Assembly (NCBI GenBank): GCA_913051705.1
Contig: CAJXCW010000001.1
Location: forward strand, 1-63,311
Length of the DNA stretch: 63,311 nt
Direction of reading: 5' to 3'
From: an uncultured bacterium
GTDB taxonomy: Bacteria; JAAXHH01
Program-made: the position numbers and the translations under genes
Notes under the pieces: model-generated
What the model was told of the DNA's origin: nothing
The model's database searches: none
Seen by the model: the letters and a program-made list of their open reading frames with translations, nothing else
Shown: one piece after another, positions 44,522-56,593 of the stretch
How the letters are laid out: each line of letters opens with the position of its first letter
How positions within the stretch are numbered: the first letter of the stretch is position 1

Positions 44522-45511
44522 TCAATCATATAGCCACGTATTCAACTCTTCTCTCAAGGCGGGTTCCATCTTCATATCGTATGCTTCAAGGGCGTTGTCG
44601 ATATGGCTTGTCTTTCGTGCGCCGACAATCACCGACGTGATGTCCGGATGGGTCATAGCCCAGGCCATGGCAAGGCGTACCATAGGCATACCAAGCTCTA
44701 TTGCTTTGGACTGTAAACGTTCTACATTACGGAAATTGCGTTCATTGAAATAGATATCCGCATGACCTGGAATGACATCAAATCGTGACCCTTTGGGAAA
44801 AGAATCACGGTCCGGCGTATATTTCCCTGCCAGAAACCCGGCTGCCAGCGGACTGTAAGTCGTAATCCCTATTTCTTCGGATCTGCATAACGGAAAAAGA
44901 TCATCTTGCGCTTCAGGGGCAGCCAGGCTGTAGGGCGGTTGAATCACTTCAAACCGGGGATAGTTTTCCGTCTTACTTACCTCCAACGCTTCTCGAAGCT
45001 GGACAGCGGAAAAATTACTGCATCCAATATGCCGTACTCGACCGGATTCAACTTGTTCAGCCAACGCAGCCATACTTTCTTGAATCGGCGTCTGATCATC
45101 GGGTGAGTGGAGTTCATAGATATCCACATATTCCACCTGCAACCTGTCCAGACTGGTCTTAAGGGCCTTTTCAATATTTTCCGGACTATTACCGCTGCTT
45201 ACTTTGGAACATAAAATAATCTTGTCACGACATCCACGCGAGGTCAACCACCGCCCCATGATGATCTCCGCAGACCCTATTATATTTGTTGCTTCGCGCA
45301 CATCATCGACATTGAGCGCCTGCCTGCGATAGGCCTGCGCATTGCCTCCCCCATAGGCTTCTGCCGTGTCGAACCAGGTAATGCCTTTCTCTACGGCATA
45401 GTCCAGCACAGGATACGATGCCTCTTCATCAATCTCTCGTCCGAACGTCACGCATCCCAGACCTATAAAACTGATGGATTGATTTGTTCTACCAAGTAGC
45501 CGATATTCCAT
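44522..45511 (-). CDS. Aldo/keto reductase
   Basis: 329 aa. GITWFDTAEAYGGG, VDIYELHSPD, HIGCSNF. Confidence 0.87.
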   Translation of the reverse strand: MEYRLLGRTNQSISFIGLGCVTFGREIDEEASYPVLDYAVEKGITWFDTAEAYGGGNAQAYRRQALNVDDVREATNIIGSAEIIMGRWLTSRGCRDKIILCSKVSSGNSPENIEKALKTSLDRLQVEYVDIYELHSPDDQTPIQESMAALAEQVESGRVRHIGCSNFSAVQLREALEVSKTENYPRFEVIQPPYSLAAPEAQDDLFPLCRSEEIGITTYSPLAAGFLAGKYTPDRDSFPKGSRFDVIPGHADIYFNERNFRNVERLQSKAIELGMPMVRLAMAWAMTHPDITSVIVGARKTSHIDNALEAYDMKMEPALREELNTWLYD

Positions 45512-45586
45512 ATCTACTTTCCTCCTTAGCCTTACATGCTAACAGAAAATACAGGCTGGATAATGCTGGAGCAACAGGCATTTAAA

Positions 45587-45620
45587 TAAAAAACCCCGCT
45601 GTACTCAGCGGGGAAAAAAG
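45587..45620 (-). terminator. Rho-independent terminator of the sigma/Rad52-like operon
   Basis: CCCCGCTG-TACT-CAGCGGGG (45594-45613). On the minus strand the stem is followed by a T-run. 22 nt after the Rad52-like stop. Confidence 0.8.
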
Positions 45621-45641
45621 ATCGATATGAATAAGACTAAG

Positions 45642-46352
45642 TCAGTTCCCTTTCAACTTATCAATAATATCCTGCGCTTCATCCTGTGTTATTTCAGACA
45701 GATCACGACCGTAGCGCGATCTCGCCCGCTGATTCACCTGATCCTTTGTGAATTTCCGTTGGCGGGCGAGTTCAAAAATTTCTGCCAGTTGCAATTCGGT
45801 CACCTGATTTGATGGAGGTTCCGGCTCTCCCAGCAGATCATCCAAATCGTCATCTGTGACCGTCGTCTGCTTTAATTCTTCGGTAACGACGGATGTATAA
45901 TCTGAAGTCGAAGTCTCTGCTACGACATCGCTTGGTTCCGATATAACAGGTGATGGTTCTTCACTTTCAGATAGGCTTTCATCTGCGGGTACCCCGTACA
46001 ACTGGAGACCAATTCCATACAAGGTTGCCGTTTTTTTTAATGCATCGGATGCGGCTGCTTTTAGGGCGTCCCCCATGGACAGCACCATACCATCTTCGGT
46101 ATCCTGCTGAAGTTCACAGGTGCCGAATTGCTGTTTTGATACCCCTCCAGCCGTTATTTCACCCAACACCACCACATCGTCATCCAGAAATTTATGATCT
46201 ACAATTTGAAAACTCCATTCCCCATTAAATACTTCGTTCAAGCGATTTATGATGGTTGGGGTTTCAAGATAGGCGACCATCAAACCGATACTGGTGCGAC
46301 GGTGTTTGATCTGATCCGTTGGAAAAGGGCGTTTCAGGAGTTCCAGATTCAT
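45642..46352 (-). CDS. Rad52/22-family (DdrA/Sak-like) single-strand annealing protein
   Basis: Start at MNLELLKRPFP (AAGGAG 7 nt upstream). VAYLETPTIINRLNEVFNGEWSF and GDALKAAASDALKKTATLYGIGLQLYG match the Rad52 core. Acidic linker plus a small helical C-terminal domain. Confidence 0.65.
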   Translation of the reverse strand: MNLELLKRPFPTDQIKHRRTSIGLMVAYLETPTIINRLNEVFNGEWSFQIVDHKFLDDDVVVLGEITAGGVSKQQFGTCELQQDTEDGMVLSMGDALKAAASDALKKTATLYGIGLQLYGVPADESLSESEEPSPVISEPSDVVAETSTSDYTSVVTEELKQTTVTDDDLDDLLGEPEPPSNQVTELQLAEIFELARQRKFTKDQVNQRARSRYGRDLSEITQDEAQDIIDKLKGN

Positions 46353-46399
46353 CGTATTTCTCCTTAGATGGCCTACGGAGCAACTTCCCGTACACCCTC

Positions 46400-47671
46400 T
46401 TAAGGTCGGTCCGACGAACCGACCTGGCGTACACGATCCTGCCATAGTAGCTTCAGTTGTTCCAGCTCCAGTTTGTGTTGTTCCATCTCCATCTCATGTT
46501 CCAGTATCATTTGTTGAAGCATATCCAGGTTCCGAAGCGCTTCATCCTCATCAACCACTCTCTCCTCGGGTGGTTCTTCCAGGAGACGGGGCTGCGGCAC
46601 CAGAACAGTATGCGTGATATTTTCCAGATCGTCACGTAAATATTTAATCTCTATCTTTGAACCGATGGGCAGGGTGATCACGAATTCGGCCAGCATAATC
46701 GGGTGGTCCATGGAAATGCCGTTGATTTCAAGTAGCCAGTCTCCCTTTTGCAATCCCGCTTTTTCCGCAGGACTATCCGGAAAGACATCAGTAATTTCCA
46801 TACCATCACTCTTACCAACCACCACATTCAACGCGGCGTTGATATTAACGCTGTCCCATATTTTTTCTACATACACCCCCAACCAGCTTCGACGGATTTC
46901 ACCATATTCGATCAAATGCCGGGCGAATGTTTTGACTCTGTTTATCGGGATAACGGAGACCACCCCGGATCCCTCGCTGGATATTATACCACCGGATGGA
47001 ATTGTTTTATTACCGGTTTCTCCTACGATCAAGCCAATAAGTCGTCCTTCGAGAGAAAATGCGGCGCCACCTGTAAACCCCCTGGAAAGTATGGCGCTGA
47101 CCTGGAGCAGGACATCTTCTTTTCTGATTCCGTTGACGATACCGAGTGAGATGGAAGACGGTGTGCCGTAGGCGTTACTTAGAAGTAAAACCCAGGCCCC
47201 TGGCCGTGCATCATCAGAGTCGCCTAGCAAAACCGGGGAGACCGAGACGCTGTCGACTCGAATGACCGCAATATCGGATAGTAAATCGACCCCGACTATT
47301 TTTCCTGAACGATATTGTCCGTCCGGAAAGCTGACCAGAATATCATAGGCATGAGTAACGACGCCGGCCGTCGTAAGAATATAGCCGTCCTTATGTAAAA
47401 CTACACCCGACCCCACGGCACGGGTCCAATCCGTAATAATTTGCCCATTGATATTGGTCACATGCTTCCGCTGAACGATTACAGTGGCGACAGAATGCTC
47501 GACTCGTTTCACGAGAGCAATCATTTCTTTTTCCATCATGTTGAGTGTTGTCGCCGGCTGGGCTGTAACACGTAAAAACCCGCCTGACAGCAACAAGCCC
47601 AGCGTAAAAAAACACACAAAAGCTTTGCCGTGGCGGGTAGATGGAAAAACTGTATTCGATGGGGTGATCAT
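46400..47671 (-). CDS. HtrA/DegP-like trypsin-fold plus PDZ protein with degenerate catalytic triad and coiled-coil tail
   Basis: Signal/anchor AFVCFFTLGLLLSGGFL. GSGVVLHKDGYILTTAGVV (Gly where TNxHVV has His), SDIAVIRVD (Asp kept), GFTGGAAF (Thr where GNSGG has Ser). PDZ region VFPDSPAEKAGLQKGDWLLEING. Confidence 0.75.
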   Translation of the reverse strand: MITPSNTVFPSTRHGKAFVCFFTLGLLLSGGFLRVTAQPATTLNMMEKEMIALVKRVEHSVATVIVQRKHVTNINGQIITDWTRAVGSGVVLHKDGYILTTAGVVTHAYDILVSFPDGQYRSGKIVGVDLLSDIAVIRVDSVSVSPVLLGDSDDARPGAWVLLLSNAYGTPSSISLGIVNGIRKEDVLLQVSAILSRGFTGGAAFSLEGRLIGLIVGETGNKTIPSGGIISSEGSGVVSVIPINRVKTFARHLIEYGEIRRSWLGVYVEKIWDSVNINAALNVVVGKSDGMEITDVFPDSPAEKAGLQKGDWLLEINGISMDHPIMLAEFVITLPIGSKIEIKYLRDDLENITHTVLVPQPRLLEEPPEERVVDEDEALRNLDMLQQMILEHEMEMEQHKLELEQLKLLWQDRVRQVGSSDRP

Positions 47672-47676
47672 GGTGG

Positions 47677-48519
47677 TTAGAAAGAGATACGGATACGTTT
47701 TATCTGAGAAGCAGGTCTAATCAGCCGCTTCATCGCCTGTAAGCGATTCCTATTTAGCGGCATTCTTCCAATCATAAACGCGTTCATATCCCTTTGACGA
47801 GAGACATTAAGATTAATTGTCTGATTCGTCAGGGAACCTGGCTCCATCCTTTTCTGAGGTATAGTGGAGACGGTTTGAAATTCCGGAGACGGTTGGGAAT
47901 CCATCGTAGGAATAGTCATAATAGCATTACTGGTCAATGTGTGTGGTGCTTTCGCAACTGAATTTGTCAAGATGACTACCGGTGAATTCGGGATAATCTC
48001 TGGGGGAGCCATGTGTGAGACCATAGAGATAGCCATCACAGGAGCCAGTTCCGACTCAAACGGTATCGGTGAAATAATATCCCAGGAGGCCAGATCATGT
48101 TCAACAGGCGTAGGAATAGTCAAAATAGCAAGGGTAGAACCTGATGGGAATGAGGATAATCCGATGATGACGGCAATGGTCAATAATATACTGGTCGCAA
48201 ACACGAGTTGTACCGTACGTTGACGACTGTATTGTGTCAATTCGTCCAACGATCCTTTTATCGAAGCCCAGAAAGGAACGGCGTACAACTCACGGGTCCG
48301 CGCGGCATGCAAGCGGCTACGAAGGACTTGCTCGAAATCCGGTCGTGGGGGTAGGGAAGGTAAACCGCGTATAGCAAGAATGGATCGCTCCATGTCCCCT
48401 ATTTTGGTCTGGCATCGCGGACAACCCGTTAGATGAAAACGGAGTTCATCTCCGCACTCTTGATCCAACAGACCATCCAGATACTCTGAAAATTGTTTTT
48501 CGTAGTCGTTGCAGTTCAA
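47677..48519 (-). CDS. Anti-sigma factor (zf-HC2 type, single-pass membrane)
   Basis: N-terminal CNDYEKQFSEYLDGLLDQECGDELRFHLTGCPRCQ (H-x3-C-x2-C), TM segment VQLVFATSILLTIAVIIGL. 18 nt after the sigma gene. TTG start assumed. Confidence 0.65.
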   Translation of the reverse strand: MNCNDYEKQFSEYLDGLLDQECGDELRFHLTGCPRCQTKIGDMERSILAIRGLPSLPPRPDFEQVLRSRLHAARTRELYAVPFWASIKGSLDELTQYSRQRTVQLVFATSILLTIAVIIGLSSFPSGSTLAILTIPTPVEHDLASWDIISPIPFESELAPVMAISMVSHMAPPEIIPNSPVVILTNSVAKAPHTLTSNAIMTIPTMDSQPSPEFQTVSTIPQKRMEPGSLTNQTINLNVSRQRDMNAFMIGRMPLNRNRLQAMKRLIRPASQIKRIRISF

Positions 48520-48537
48520 AGCAGATATCCTTAAAAA

Positions 48538-49176
48538 CTAAACCTCGATGTGCCACTGTCTTAACAAAGCCTGCAGCCTGAGACGAGCCCGATTTACACG
48601 CGATTTGACCGTGCCGGTGGGGCAGTCCAGAATATGACTGATCTGTTCGTAAGATAATTCCTGTACATCTCGAAGGACAATAACCGTACGGTATTTAATC
48701 GGTAGTAGATCTATCGCTTTTTGAATGGTCCGACCTAATTCGCTTTGTTCCAGGTGTTCGAACGGCCCGGAGGATGGATCAGGCAGGTCAAACCCTTCTG
48801 TGTTACTGTCTTGATACGTCGATGAATTCAGTGAGAAAAACTGACGCCTTTTACGTTTGCGTAGTTCACTACGCGCCAAATTCAAGGCAATAGTATAGAT
48901 CCACGTCGAAAAATTGGACGTAGCCTGATAATTATGTCGATTTTTATAAACGCGTAGGAAAGTTTCCTGCACCAGATCTTCCGCATTTTCCGCATTGTTC
49001 ACCATGCGATACACGCAATTGTACAACCTGGTTTTGTACCGGCTGACAATCATCTCGAACGCGTGCATGTCCGCGCGTTGCACCTGGCTGAACAACATTT
49101 CATCGGTGGCGGTCAAGAGGTCATAACCGTCCGGCTGTGTTTTTTCAGCCGTTGCTGCAAATATGTAATTAGACAT
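48538..49176 (-). CDS. ECF-type RNA polymerase sigma-70 factor
   Basis: Start at the ATG at 49176 (GGAGG upstream). Region 2 EDLVQETFLRVYKN and WIYTIALNLA, region 4 YRTVIVLRDVQELSYEQISHILDCPTGTVKSRVNRARLRL. Confidence 0.87.
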   Translation of the reverse strand: MSNYIFAATAEKTQPDGYDLLTATDEMLFSQVQRADMHAFEMIVSRYKTRLYNCVYRMVNNAENAEDLVQETFLRVYKNRHNYQATSNFSTWIYTIALNLARSELRKRKRRQFFSLNSSTYQDSNTEGFDLPDPSSGPFEHLEQSELGRTIQKAIDLLPIKYRTVIVLRDVQELSYEQISHILDCPTGTVKSRVNRARLRLQALLRQWHIEV

Positions 49177-49200
49177 AATAAAGCCCTCCCACTTCAATTA

Positions 49201-49225
49201 CACGTACCCCTATGGGAATGGTTCC
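49201..49225 (-). promoter_or_regulatory. Candidate autoregulated ECF promoter GGAAC-N16-CGTG
   Basis: The minus strand reads GGAACC ATTCCCATAGGGGTA CGTG. The -10-like element ends 24 nt before the ATG at 49176. Confidence 0.45.
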
Positions 49226-49490
49226 AAAAATAATATTCTAATAACCGAGGCTTTATTTTCTTTTCATGATAAGAAGCGTAGCGAGCCTCTTTACATAGTT
49301 GACACAAAGTAAAAAGATGGATTCAGGTCTGAAAAGTTATTTTAATCTGGATTCAGTCGGATCTAAATACGATCCTACAATATAGCAAATTCCAGGCAGC
49401 CATGTCAACAACCGAATTGATCCTTGATTAACATCCCTATCCACCCAATAACTCGGTGGATGACACCCGACCCTGCGGAATGCCCTTATT

Positions 49491-51176
49491 CTATTCTGCC
49501 GGCATATACTCACTAATATCATGAATCGTATATTGATATCCCTGTTCAGTCAGGAAAAGCTGCCGATTAACCGCATAGTCCTGATCGAGCGTATTCCGCG
49601 TTATAATGGAATAAAAAATGGCGGAAGATCCATCGACTTTGGGTCTTAGAATACGACCAAGTCGTTGGGCTTCCTCCTGCCTGGATCCGAAGGTGCCGGA
49701 TATCTGGATGGCCACATTGGCATCAGGCAGGTCGATTGCAAAATTAGCCACTTTAGACACCACCAGCCGTTTAATTTCACCAGAGCGGAATTTTGCATAT
49801 AATTCAATTCTGGTTTGAAGGGGGGTACTACCCGTGATGAGTGGAAGATTGAAAATGGCCGCGACTTCTTTGATCTGCTTCAAATACTGGCCAATAATCA
49901 AAATCTGATCAGTGGGGTGTTGTGCAAGTAACAAGCGGATCATATCCGCCTTACGGTCATTTTCAGATGCGATACGAAATTTTTCACGCCGATTGGCCAC
50001 AGCGTAGGGCATACGTCGTTCCTCAGGCAGATCAATCCGAATTTCTCGACAGTATGCTTCTGCAATCCATCCCTGACGTTCCAGCAACTTCCAGGGCATA
50101 TCGTACCGCTTTGGGCCGATTAAACTGAATACATCACTTTCACGACCGTCTTCCCGGATTAATGTGGCTGTCAGACCGAGTCGACGTCGGGCTTGAATTT
50201 CCGACGTGAACCGGAACACCGGTGCCGGAAGCAGATGAACTTCATCGTAAATGATGAGTCCCCACCCTTCCCGATTGAAAAGATCGAAATGTTTAAATTC
50301 ATCAGTCTTGCTTTTGCGGTACGTCAGAATCTGGTATGTGGCCAGGGTCACGGGTTTTATCTCTTTGACCACTCCGGAATACTCTCCAATGTCGTCACTT
50401 GTCAGCGTAGTCTTGTCAAGCAGCTCATCACGCCACTGGCGAAGGGCCACCGTGTTTGCCGAAAGAATTAATGTCTGGCATTGTAGGGCGGCCATAGCCC
50501 CTATGGCCACAACCGTTTTTCCTGCCCCGCAAGGTAAAACGATCACGCCGTTTCCACCACGCAACGCCCCGTTCATATGAAAGGCGCGAACGGAATCAGA
50601 TTGATAATCTCTCAATGAAAAAGGGAGCCCATCTTGTGTCGATTCCCGCAATTGAAAGGCAAGTGGGGTGCCCGTGACGTACCCTGCCAGATCTTCTACC
50701 GGGAACCCGACTTTAATCAAGGCTTGTTTTATATGACCCCGAAAACGATCTCCGACAAAAACGCTTCGTTCATCAATTTTTCCGATCAGAAATTTATTTA
50801 CGGAAGGCAATCCTGACACCTCTGCCATCAACACCGGATCGTCCGTTTCAAGAATAAGTTTGTCGTCCCTTTTTATCAAACGAATTTGTCCGTATCGGGT
50901 AATGAATTCAGTAATTTCCCGGCTTATATTCTGCGGCACTTCATATTTACTTAAGCGATTCAACGTAACCAGGATAGTCTCTGCATCCAATCCTGAAGCA
51001 GCGGCATTCCAAAGAGAAAGCGGAGAAATTCGGTAGGTGTGAATATGTTCCGGTGATTTTTCGAGTTCGGCAAATCGGGCTAACACATCCCGGGCATCTT
51101 CGTATTGAGGGTGGTCAGCTTCCAGAAGGACGGATCGATCACTTTGTACAATCAATGGATTTTGCATGTGAGGCAC
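49491..51176 (-). CDS. XPB/ERCC3/Ssl2-type SF2 DNA helicase
   Basis: 561 aa. N-terminal damage-recognition-like LIVQSDRSVLLEADHPQYEDARDVLARFAELEKSPEHIHTYRISPLSLWNAAASG, Walker A LPCGAGKT, DEVH box, TATLIRED. Confidence 0.87.
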   Translation of the reverse strand: MPHMQNPLIVQSDRSVLLEADHPQYEDARDVLARFAELEKSPEHIHTYRISPLSLWNAAASGLDAETILVTLNRLSKYEVPQNISREITEFITRYGQIRLIKRDDKLILETDDPVLMAEVSGLPSVNKFLIGKIDERSVFVGDRFRGHIKQALIKVGFPVEDLAGYVTGTPLAFQLRESTQDGLPFSLRDYQSDSVRAFHMNGALRGGNGVIVLPCGAGKTVVAIGAMAALQCQTLILSANTVALRQWRDELLDKTTLTSDDIGEYSGVVKEIKPVTLATYQILTYRKSKTDEFKHFDLFNREGWGLIIYDEVHLLPAPVFRFTSEIQARRRLGLTATLIREDGRESDVFSLIGPKRYDMPWKLLERQGWIAEAYCREIRIDLPEERRMPYAVANRREKFRIASENDRKADMIRLLLAQHPTDQILIIGQYLKQIKEVAAIFNLPLITGSTPLQTRIELYAKFRSGEIKRLVVSKVANFAIDLPDANVAIQISGTFGSRQEEAQRLGRILRPKVDGSSAIFYSIITRNTLDQDYAVNRQLFLTEQGYQYTIHDISEYMPAE

Positions 51177-54958: not shown

Positions 54959-56593
54959 ATGTCAACCATTCGAAAACCAAAATACATTGCTCTTCTAATT
55001 TGTGTCGCCATCTTCTCTTTTGTCCTGGGGAGTACGACCACGCGCAGCACCTACGCGGCAGACAATCTGTTTACCAATATCAGACTTCTGAGCGGCGTGC
55101 TGAGTCTAGTAAACGATAATTATGTTGAGAAAGTGGACGCCAGCAAGTTGATCTATTCCGCCATTGACGGTATGCTCCAGGCGCTCGACCCACATTCTAA
55201 CTTCTTGAGCAAAGAGAGTTTTACAGATATGGGCGAGCGGTTCAGCGGTAAATTTTATGGCATAGGCATTGAGTTCGATGTGTTGGATGGATATTTATAT
55301 GTCATCTCGGTGATTGACGGTTCCCCTTCTGAAGCCGTAGGGCTCCAATCGGGCGACCGACTCGTAAAAATAAACGGGGAATCGGCCATAGGTATAAAAC
55401 ATGACGAAGTACGCAAGAAGCTCCGTGGAGAAAAAGGAACAACCGTTGAAGTTACGGTTAATCGGGTCGGCGCCGAAGAGCCATTTAACGTGACCATCAC
55501 CCGCGATCGTATTCCTATTCGCAGTGTACTTTCATCCTTTATGCTTGATGAACAGACCGGTTATATTCAGATGGTCCGGTTTGCCAAAACAACATCTGAT
55601 GAATTGGAAACGGCACTCAATAAACTCGAGAACTTAGGTATGAAGCGCCTGATTTTTGACCTGCGCGGTAACTCCGGCGGATATCTGGATCAGGCCGTTG
55701 AAGTGTCGAGCAAGTTTATTGAAGAAGGAAAAATGATCGTAGAGACCCGAGGACGGACACGAAGTTCAAATCAGGAGTTTCGTTCCGGAGGGTCCATTCA
55801 TGATCAATTCCCGCTCGTCGTTCTTCTTGACCATCGATCCGCCTCGGCCTCTGAAATTGTCGCCGGCGCCGTTCAGGACTGGGATCGTGGTGTGATTGCC
55901 GGATCTCGAAGTTTCGGCAAAGGACTGGTGCAGACTTTGTTCGCGGAGCCGCATCTGCGCGATGGATCCGCCTTAAAGCTTACCACGGCTCAATACTACA
56001 CGCCGAGTGGACGGTTAATCCAACGAGATTATAAGAACAAATCCTATCAGGAATATGTCGAAGAAGCGTTCGAAGATTCAGATGAGGTTATTGGTCAAGA
56101 GATGATTGATGAAAATGAAGATGGTATTGATGATCGCCCCGTGTTTAATACGGCTAATGGTCGAACGGTATACGGCGGAGGAGGAATTACCCCTGATGTT
56201 TCTATAAAGGCGCCTAAACGGAAATATCCTTTTGTGATTGGTAAGTTCCATGGGTGGACCCCCTTCGATCGGGCATGTTTTGAATTTGCTACGCAGTACG
56301 GTGTGAACCATCAGAATTTGAAAGACGATTTCGAAAACTTTTTCAGCGATTTTGAAGTCAGCGACGAGATGGTCGAAGCCTTTAAAGAACAGGTAAGTGA
56401 TTCGGGGATTTCCTTTACCCAGGAAGAATTTGATACCGATCTGGATGTGGTTAAGCTCCAATTGAAACGATCGGTTGCCCGCAATATGTGGGGTGATGAG
56501 GAAGCCGGTAAAGTAGGGTCTTCCGGCGATGTCCAGTTACAAAAGGCTCTCCTTTTGTTCAACACACACGAGATGCTGGTGGAAAATAAATAG
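54959..56593 (+). CDS. S41-family carboxyl-terminal processing peptidase
   Basis: 544 aa. Signal anchor, PDZ (GSPSEAVGLQSGDRLVKINGES), LIFDLRGNSGGYL, SASASEIVAGAVQD. Confidence 0.86.
   Translation: MSTIRKPKYIALLICVAIFSFVLGSTTTRSTYAADNLFTNIRLLSGVLSLVNDNYVEKVDASKLIYSAIDGMLQALDPHSNFLSKESFTDMGERFSGKFYGIGIEFDVLDGYLYVISVIDGSPSEAVGLQSGDRLVKINGESAIGIKHDEVRKKLRGEKGTTVEVTVNRVGAEEPFNVTITRDRIPIRSVLSSFMLDEQTGYIQMVRFAKTTSDELETALNKLENLGMKRLIFDLRGNSGGYLDQAVEVSSKFIEEGKMIVETRGRTRSSNQEFRSGGSIHDQFPLVVLLDHRSASASEIVAGAVQDWDRGVIAGSRSFGKGLVQTLFAEPHLRDGSALKLTTAQYYTPSGRLIQRDYKNKSYQEYVEEAFEDSDEVIGQEMIDENEDGIDDRPVFNTANGRTVYGGGGITPDVSIKAPKRKYPFVIGKFHGWTPFDRACFEFATQYGVNHQNLKDDFENFFSDFEVSDEMVEAFKEQVSDSGISFTQEEFDTDLDVVKLQLKRSVARNMWGDEEAGKVGSSGDVQLQKALLLFNTHEMLVENK

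Follow-up and report, generated by a model that had tools for sequence, protein, structure and literature searches.

A contig of 63,311 nt from an uncultured bacterium (CAJXCW010000001.1, assembly GCA_913051705.1; the whole stretch is called the window here) carries four consecutive minus-strand genes that encode a sigma factor of the extracytoplasmic function (ECF) type, an anti-sigma factor, an HtrA-like protein and a Rad52-like single-strand annealing protein, or annealase (Table 1). On balance, these genes probably constitute a positively autoregulated ECF operon of the RpoE/AlgU/SigW kind, whose sole non-regulatory cargo is a domesticated phage-type annealase. The genes are indeed so arranged, and the arrangement is old and expressed, but it is confined to one uncultured lineage of marine, Latescibacterota-like bacteria and is dispensable in a sister clade of that lineage. 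A bolder reading is rather less likely, namely that the ECF sigma factor directly commands RecA-independent annealing; a new kind of lock between the PDZ domain of the inactive HtrA and the tail of the anti-sigma factor would sense envelope damage, whether physical stress, phage or DNA uptake had caused it, and the response would include a burst of a phage-derived, Rad52-type annealase that docks on SSB. On that reading the operon would provide the first ECF-controlled annealase, along with a new mode of anti-sigma control based on a pseudo-protease.

The layout given by the sequence-only reading was upheld when the positions of the open reading frames (ORFs) were recomputed, with four minus-strand genes separated by gaps of 18, 5 and 47 nt. 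The ORF of the sigma gene begins with a TTG at 49197, and the ATG preceded by a GGGAGGG ribosome-binding site lies at 49176. The proposed promoter, GGAAC-N16-CGTG at 49201-49225, was read directly and is conserved in relatives: the motif TG[GA]AAC-N16/17-CGT[GA]TA occurs exactly once in each of the related loci, both Rad52-carrying (6/6) and Rad52-less (18/18), the former having it ~48 nt ahead of the sigma ATG and the latter upstream of sigma, and the spacer between its -35 and -10 elements varies in sequence. In the window the motif has one match against 0.45 expected, and at least one match is found in 36 of 100 shuffled sequences, a count that is not significant alone; the promoter is judged to be real because of its conservation across the related loci. 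Looser GGAAC/CGT patterns are too frequent in the window to be interpreted. At the other end of the operon, the predicted intrinsic terminator was confirmed as a hairpin and T-run that has equivalents after the Rad52 gene in L001, L003, L005, L006 and L011 (six loci with the window), and five of the six loci that were aligned have such a terminator; a search against Rfam returned a sub-threshold match only, on this hairpin. No internal promoter or terminator was detected inside the operon, and the 3' portion of HtrA showed neither a sigma-70-like nor an ECF-like site. The gap between the HtrA and Rad52 genes is 9-14 nt in L001, L003, L005, L006 and L012. One transcription unit, lying between a conserved promoter and a terminator, is thus supported for the four genes.

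Co-transcription, which the sequence-only reading had assumed, agrees with the tight gaps and with RNA contigs from marine metatranscriptomes, which cover all four operon genes. The HtrA/Rad52 junction is bridged by contigs X25 (46189-46454) and X26 (46258-46847), and the anti-sigma/HtrA junction by X24 (47620-47895) and X27 (47610-47760). Across 15 kb the RNA contigs concentrate in the operon and are enriched relative to 11 kb of flanks, and there is zero coverage past the terminator, at 45300-45581. Because the contigs were assembled without strand information and DNA may be among them, they are supportive of co-transcription of the four genes, not conclusive. Two of them extend upstream of the ECF promoter, to 49308 and 49314, which provides a weak fit to a second, sigma-70-like promoter at 49408-49379. 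Basal expression of the operon may start from this candidate; in a comparison with L001 its -35 hexamer is kept and its -10 hexamer is not clearly kept, so that its conservation was not confirmed. DNA of this region recurs in marine and seawater metagenomes.

The sigma, zf-HC2 anti-sigma and HtrA-like assignments are all borne out by Pfam and NCBIfam profiles. The sigma factor contains Sigma70_r2 and r4_2 and no other regions, scores 117 bits against TIGR02937 (sigma70-ECF; cut-off 42.9) and has SigW and RpoE types as its best named NCBIfam matches; on this domain content it is classed as an ECF (group 4) sigma factor. It is 63-88% identical among relatives, with a ratio of nonsynonymous to synonymous substitution rates (dN/dS) of 0.06. 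The anti-sigma factor matches zf-HC2 (PF13490) at 27.7 bits (cut-off 22.2), its H-x3-C-x2-C zinc motif reads HLTGCPRC, and a hydrophobic stretch, VQLVFATSILLTIAVIIGLSSF, follows the zf-HC2 domain and was taken by eye as one transmembrane helix; it is assigned from these features to class I (ASD/ZAS) as a single-pass membrane protein. Its identity among relatives is 27-62% overall and its periplasmic region is highly variable: the ~150 periplasmic residues that precede the C-terminal tail are barely alignable across the window, L001-L012 and L094-L111, and no family could be assigned to them in profile searches. The C-terminus itself reads R-[IV]-R-[IV]-S-F-COOH, or a close variant, in 25 loci (window 47677-47700).

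The HtrA-like protein is predicted to be secreted and comprises a Trypsin_2 domain (4e-22), one PDZ domain (PDZ_6, 2e-11) and a C-terminal coiled coil, and it matches the structures of DegQ and DegP at E 1e-33. Its description as degenerate proved accurate: at the positions of the E. coli DegP triad (2zle, H105/D135/S210) the window protein has G/D/T, so that His is replaced by Gly and Ser by Thr. The catalytic His is missing in all 25 loci, whose nucleophile position holds Thr or Ser; about nine of the loci that were read have Gly, Ser or Asn in place of the triad Asp. Because the catalytic triad is lost and scores against every NCBIfam HtrA equivalog model fall far under the cut-off, the protein is classed as an HtrA-fold pseudo-protease. 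The carboxylate-binding loop of its PDZ domain, RRSWLG[VI], is invariant in the same 25 loci (window 46871-46891, RRSWLGV), and this loop and the anti-sigma tail look like a conserved tail-and-pocket pair. In known systems the PDZ domain of DegS reads C-terminal YxF peptides, and RseB and MucB shield the anti-sigma factor; by analogy, and from this conservation, the inactive HtrA may hold or read the anti-sigma tail.

The last gene had been assigned to the Rad52 family, and this assignment is sustained by both profile and fold, the peptides quoted in its favor being present in the translation. The protein matches Rad52_Rad22 (PF04098) at E 1e-12 (48.7 bits, cut-off 20.3), and a profile built from its clade finds human RAD52 chains by sequence at E 2e-5. 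The N-terminal domain is modelled by AlphaFold2 with a predicted local distance difference test score (pLDDT) of 85-94, and its elements (E15-19, E25-29, H31-42, E46-55, E59-68, E71-80 and H93-111) reproduce the Rad52 core topology of a beta-hairpin, a helix, a three-stranded sheet and a helix. The best Foldseek match is to the N-terminal domain of human RAD52 (E 8e-8), followed by the Sak protein of phage 80-alpha (1.5e-4) and lambda Red-beta (4e-3). Residues R18, Y28, K106 and K107 align with RAD52 R55, Y65, K152 and R153, which we take to be the inner groove that binds single-stranded DNA (ssDNA); across 24 sequences no variation is seen at K106 or K107, and at least 90% keep R18 and Y28. 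The acidic linker and small helical C-terminal domain described earlier are likewise recovered, as a disordered region (pLDDT <50, residues 124-179) and a three-helix model. Modelled alone, the C-terminal domain has a pLDDT of 87, and its top six Foldseek matches are all to the Red-beta C-terminal domain (8tg7, 8tfu, 6m9k; probability 0.97-1.0), with TM-scores of 0.69-0.74, a root-mean-square deviation of 1.7-2.1 A over 56 columns and 28% identity; the next match after these six has a probability of 0.10. No Pfam, PHROG or PDB-sequence family was found for this domain, its matches to DUF7229, Gluconate_2-dh3 and designed repeat proteins all being sub-threshold. The C-terminal domain of Red-beta binds lambda exonuclease and the C-terminal tail of E. 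coli SSB (PMC6393309; PDB 6m9k, 8tfu, 8tg7), and on the modelled resemblance the domain here is presumed to be a docking domain for SSB or another partner. The dN/dS of the annealase, computed from two close relatives, is 0.18 overall and 0.04, 0.59 and 0.13 in the N-terminal domain, linker and C-terminal domain respectively; the overall and N-terminal values indicate that the protein is under purifying selection.

The history of the linkage was traced with a profile-based scan for Rad52 relatives that used one genome per species and a neighborhood of 6 kb; a scan of the genome collection with the single protein had returned zero relatives. In every member of the annealase clade with enough flanking sequence, the pseudo-HtrA gene lies directly upstream of the annealase gene, and beyond it, where contigs reach, the anti-sigma, sigma and XPB genes follow in turn, XPB being the helicase gene that precedes the operon. 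The genes downstream of Rad52 vary by locus, and are SDR and AKR genes, a DUF6785 gene or a convergent gene. None of the other Rad52-like genes detected (in lineages that include Atribacterota, Chloroflexia, Solibacteraceae, Myxococcota and Deinococcus) is found <6 kb from such a sigma or HtrA gene, and the annealase-sigma linkage is confined to one lineage. A scan with the pseudo-HtrA identified 18 further species without Rad52, and a scan with XPB added two, for about 20; these carry the XPB-sigma-anti-sigma-HtrA array, many of them on complete or near-complete chromosomes of 3.5-3.9 Mb. Close inspection of two of these loci showed that the AKR and M20 genes standing after Rad52 in the window come immediately after the HtrA gene there. 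The recurrence of the four-gene synteny, which the sequence-only reading had proposed to check, therefore holds within the annealase's own clade and fails in the sister clade. Because these sister species have the module without Rad52, the sigma switch is considered to be independent of the annealase.

The order of events was read from an outgroup-rooted neighbor-joining tree of the XPB protein, a one-protein distance tree that serves as a proxy for the species tree. No sigma module adjoins XPB in the outgroups (Poribacteria, other Latescibacterota, Hydrogenedentota and Chloroflexota). The ingroup is monophyletic in 100/100 bootstrap replicates, and the Rad52-less clade is monophyletic and nested within Rad52-carrying lineages, each again in 100/100 replicates. 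This nesting rules out a recent insertion of the annealase gene. On the simplest history, the entire arrangement originated in the stem of the lineage with the annealase gene already in it, and that gene was deleted once. An annealase that was ancestrally at the 3' end of the operon and was lost once would be an accessory output and not a part of the switch, and the gene is thus old but dispensable.

Such a presence and absence is also what would be expected if the annealase were a passenger, i.e., if a phage annealase gene had landed after HtrA, were transcribed by read-through and served general repair or replication restart, its position being a historical accident. This explanation is rather unlikely, although several observations favor it: the difference between the clades is clean, with an otherwise identical operon in the sister clade that is followed by the same AKR and M20 genes; the operon is expressed in ambient samples and has a possible sigma-70-type promoter upstream; and chromosomal Rad52-like genes without a nearby sigma factor exist in Atribacterota, Chloroflexia and Deinococcus. 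It accounts less well for the fact that the gene has remained fixed to the HtrA stop codon since the root of the lineage, despite synonymous saturation and changes in the downstream genes, and no promoter of its own could be detected for the annealase gene. With no promoter of its own detected and so old a linkage to HtrA, expression of the annealase would in practice follow the sigma factor.

The origin of the annealase gene is indicated by its wider family, which comprises 9202 representative clusters at E <=1e-3, most of them of two-domain architecture. The operon-linked clade forms a single 50%-identity cluster, scoring 337 bits against 247 for the next. Three contexts were found for the nearest relatives outside the operon: a phage-like contig with small ORFs, an HTH gene and a methylase gene; a locus (P0028) in which the gene is followed by that of a PDDEXK_1 exonuclease; and an integrative element that also encodes an integrase and a HerA/FtsK-like ATPase. 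The window gene is a domesticated phage or mobile-element annealase that bears a Red-beta-like partner-binding domain. The closest database protein (94% identity) comes from a Latescibacteria metagenome-assembled genome (MAG). As the sequence-only reading had stated, there is no phage context: the flanks are cellular (purD, Sua5, GT9 and XPB upstream; AKR, M20, GH172 and GH123 downstream), the other large genes of the window are ordinary cellular genes, and no phage genes were found among the ~30 window proteins scanned. The possibility of a prophage or island was ruled out, as the flanks are collinear with genomes that lack the annealase gene.

Several side observations concern these outside relatives. 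In a Solibacteraceae MAG (L021, 3518-8327), a full-length, two-domain relative of ~36% identity lies among a tyrosine integrase gene, a Replic_Relax-like gene and a HerA/FtsK-like ATPase gene, a context that is an integrative mobile element and not a phage. The closest non-operon Rad52 N-terminal domain (53% identity) is on a phage-like contig from JGI marine metagenomes (L008-L010), and L009 comes from the same marine sample as the operon-bearing contig L002; this contig may represent the phage pool behind the host gene, or phages of these hosts. Rad52_Rad22 genes were also seen in apparently cellular contexts in other phyla (Atribacterota and Chloroflexia, loci L036-L077), with neighbors that include a PBP-like binding protein, GNAT, Asp23-like and AIR-synthase-related genes. 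One of them, in the complete genome of Candidatus Caldatribacterium sp. SIUC1 (L049, 5983-6540), has a DUF3072-like tail. Host-domesticated annealases of the Rad52 type may thus be commoner in uncultured bacteria than the example of DdrA suggests.

A role directed at phage is improbable. Here, the sigma factor would sense envelope damage caused by phage, and the annealase would act in defence or counter-defence, either as bait or by disturbing the intermediates of phage recombination or replication. The phage or mobile-element origin of the gene is compatible with such a role, as are the control of CRISPR-Cas by the ECF pair DdvS/DdvA in Myxococcus (PMC6061681) and the precedent of annealases as targets or triggers of immunity, exemplified by 80-alpha Sak with the SaPI2 Stl protein (PDB 8qe9; PMC11846896). 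However, the context is a conserved housekeeping one and not a defence island, the annealase has no effector partner, and no defence genes were seen in the neighborhood, where no scan against defence-system models was made.

Processing of incoming DNA is more improbable still. In oligonucleotide recombineering, annealases of the Red-beta type act at the replication fork on ssDNA, and the annealase here could in the same manner pair ssDNA that has been taken up with the chromosome at SSB-coated gaps, with the envelope sigma factor tying its expression to uptake or surface signals. The fold match of the C-terminal domain to that with which Red-beta-type annealases contact SSB (PMC6393309) would suit this proposal, which is purely speculative; against it, no competence genes (comEC, dprA or pilus genes) occur among the annotated genes of the window or flanks. 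Loss of the DNA function, with recruitment of the protein as an RNA- or protein-binding factor in the sigma pathway, is very improbable, for although the gene sits among regulators and has weak dsRBD-like Foldseek matches, RAD52 and Sak match far better, the residues of the ssDNA groove vary little or not at all, and the switch of the sister clade works without the protein.

The favored autoregulated ECF operon can be elaborated into the following scheme. The R-I/V-R-I/V-S-F-COOH tail of the anti-sigma factor would dock in the PDZ pocket of the inactive HtrA, which, like RseB or MucB, would work as a sensor or shield and not as a protease. Perturbation of the envelope, for example through the competing C-termini of unassembled outer-membrane proteins, would release the tail, and the anti-sigma factor could then be degraded by unlinked site-1 and site-2 proteases. 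The freed sigma factor would boost transcription of the operon that encodes it, the annealase gene included, and the annealase would multimerise like Rad52 or Sak and hold ssDNA in the groove lined by R18, Y28, K106 and K107. Its Red-beta-like C-terminal domain might direct it to SSB-coated ssDNA, where the pairing of complementary strands would provide RecA-independent repair or recombination under envelope damage. We infer, in this scheme, the signal, the tail-PDZ contact, the sigma dependence of the promoter, annealing itself, the docking on SSB and the physiological role.

Several observations weigh against this scheme or against the tight coupling that it implies. The evidence for an interaction between the tail and the PDZ domain is conservation. 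The match of the C-terminal domain is one of fold, without support from sequence profiles, and its Foldseek E-values are only 0.05-0.25 because the domain is short. No exonuclease partner stands beside the annealase, its neighbors being the HtrA-like, AKR, M20 and XPB genes, and the sigma module operates in about 20 sister species that lack the annealase. The presence of transcripts in ambient seawater, together with the contigs that reach past the ECF promoter, suggests appreciable basal expression that is possibly independent of the sigma factor, and the nature of the RNA assemblies described above also tempers their use. Finally, at one locus the spacer from HtrA to Rad52 measures 416 nt, against 9-47 nt elsewhere. 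This long spacer (L011, 536-951; also L014) is in a lake MAG labelled Zixibacteria, and neither a plus-strand terminator nor a good promoter was found within the spacer.

Table 1. Features of the operon and its surroundings, in window coordinates
Feature	Position	Strand	Remarks
ECF-type promoter, putatively autoregulatory	49198-49225	minus	GGAAC (49225-49221), N16, CGTG (49204-49201), extending to CGTGTAA
ECF sigma gene	48538-49176	minus	212 aa; ATG after GGGAGGG ribosome-binding site
Anti-sigma gene	47677-48519	minus	TTG start
HtrA-like gene	46400-47671	minus	
Rad52-like annealase gene	45642-46352	minus	
Rad52/Sak-type annealing domain	45993-46352	minus	residues 1-120
Acidic disordered linker	45822-45992	minus	residues ~121-177; length and sequence variable
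Three-helix C-terminal domain	45645-45821	minus	59 residues
Intrinsic terminator	45584-45613	minus	8-bp stem with 7 G-C pairs plus T-run, 45613-45594
Candidate sigma-70-type promoter	49379-49408	minus	TTGACA-18-TATATT with TG, 11/12 matches; ~200 nt before sigma ATG
XPB-type DNA repair helicase gene	49491-51176	minus	NCBIfam repair_heli_XPB, 863 bits

The XPB-type helicase gene that had been noted upstream on the same strand was identified with confidence by its NCBIfam model (Table 1), and it adjoins the sigma module in all ingroup loci. The sequence-only reading had proposed that a search for the GGAAC-N16-CGT motif might define a regulon, XPB included. This expectation did not hold, as the strict motif has a single match in the 63-kb window and one in each related locus, and no ECF motif lies upstream of the XPB or Rad52 gene in the window or in the related loci. 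Because XPB has no ECF promoter and the motif occurs only this once, nothing ties XPB to the regulon beyond adjacency.

Other features of the region were observed in passing. Just upstream of the ECF -35 element (window 49226-49300), the blocks CTTATCAT and TAAAGCCTyGGTT are identical in the window and L001, and the sequence around them diverges between the two; these blocks may bind a regulator or serve as an UP-like element. A gene ~6 kb from the operon (54959-56593, plus strand) encodes a C-terminal processing protease of the S41 type, which has PDZ and CtpB_N-like domains and is a candidate site-1 protease, because tail-specific proteases act on anti-sigma factors elsewhere. In the Rad52-less loci L094-L111, a conserved block, CTTGCC(T/C)-N16-17-(G)(A/G)TATACATT, is located ~40-75 nt past the HtrA stop codon in most loci; this is probably a sigma-70-type promoter of the AKR gene and marks the end of the operon where there is no annealase. 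The MAGs that share the 8-gene synteny bear three phylum labels, Gemmatimonadota (L005, L017, L095, L096 and L105), Zixibacteria (L011/L014) and Latescibacterota (L012, L016 and L097), some of which are probably wrong.

If the coupling is functional, it would link envelope integrity to recombinational DNA repair, two areas of stress biology that are usually considered separately, in a poorly known uncultured marine phylum. The pairing of an inactive HtrA that retains its PDZ pocket with an invariant anti-sigma tail represents a testable new wiring for anti-sigma proteolysis. The gene also appears to be a second, independent bacterial domestication of a Rad52-type annealase after DdrA, with a clear ancestry and a natural knockout clade for comparison, and a compact, host-adapted annealase with a predicted SSB-docking domain is a candidate tool for recombineering in related bacteria.

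The sequence-only reading had known of no description of the arrangement. The gene combination was indeed not found in the literature searched, in which no paper joins Rad52 with an ECF sigma/anti-sigma pair or Latescibacteria with Rad52; the main text of the ECF reclassification paper mentions neither Rad52, helicases, PDZ domains nor DNA repair, and the same literature searches returned nothing directly usable on pseudo-HtrA/anti-sigma pairs or on DNA-repair targets of sigma-M. An ECF-controlled repair gene is nevertheless less unprecedented than had been claimed, because ECF control of nucleic-acid functions has precedents.

Among known systems, the nearest in layout are the envelope-stress operons algU-mucA-mucB-mucC-mucD of Pseudomonas, rpoE-rseABC (with DegS) of E. 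coli and sigE-rseA-htrA of Mycobacterium. The operon described here shares with them an ECF sigma factor, a membrane anti-sigma factor, an HtrA-family PDZ protein (MucD and DegS being among the solved homologues of the latter) and a promoter of the GGAAC/CGT type, and the combination of a C-terminal peptide with a PDZ domain is likewise the probable sensing logic. It differs from them in that the HtrA lacks the His in all 25 loci and, in most, the Ser as well, in that the presumed PDZ ligand is the conserved C-terminus of the anti-sigma factor itself, and in that the operon ends in a DNA annealase. A comparable HtrA-fold protein that is kept under selection without a working triad is MamO, a pseudo-protease of magnetosome biomineralisation that functions in metal binding and is a weak NCBIfam match of the HtrA-like protein; unlike in MamO, the PDZ pocket here is intact and the gene lies in a sigma operon, both of which point to peptide sensing.

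The annealase itself resembles phage Sak proteins (ul36, 80-alpha) and lambda Red-beta in having an annealing fold of the Rad52 type, a flexible linker and a small C-terminal domain. Unlike these, it is chromosomal and vertically inherited, has no exonuclease partner or surrounding phage genes, joins a Rad52/Sak-like core to a Red-beta-like C-terminal domain, and is placed in a stress-sigma operon of the host. DdrA of Deinococcus is likewise a chromosomal, stress-induced protein of the Rad52 family that is used by its host (PMC515370). The Deinococcus loci are 28-34% identical to the annealase over residues 6-122, which span the N-terminal domain only, and score 32-46 bits on the clade profile against >340 within the clade, so that by these sequence measures the annealase does not appear to be an orthologue of DdrA (DR0423). 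DdrA is induced by radiation or desiccation under DdrO/PprI control and is reported to protect 3' ends; unlike the annealase here, it has no link to an ECF sigma factor. Sigma-M of B. subtilis counts recU, radC and disA among the members of its regulon. In Myxococcus, the ECF sigma/anti-sigma pair DdvS/DdvA controls CRISPR-Cas (PMC6061681). Unlike in either of these systems, the output of the operon described here belongs to the Rad52 family and is encoded inside the sigma operon itself.

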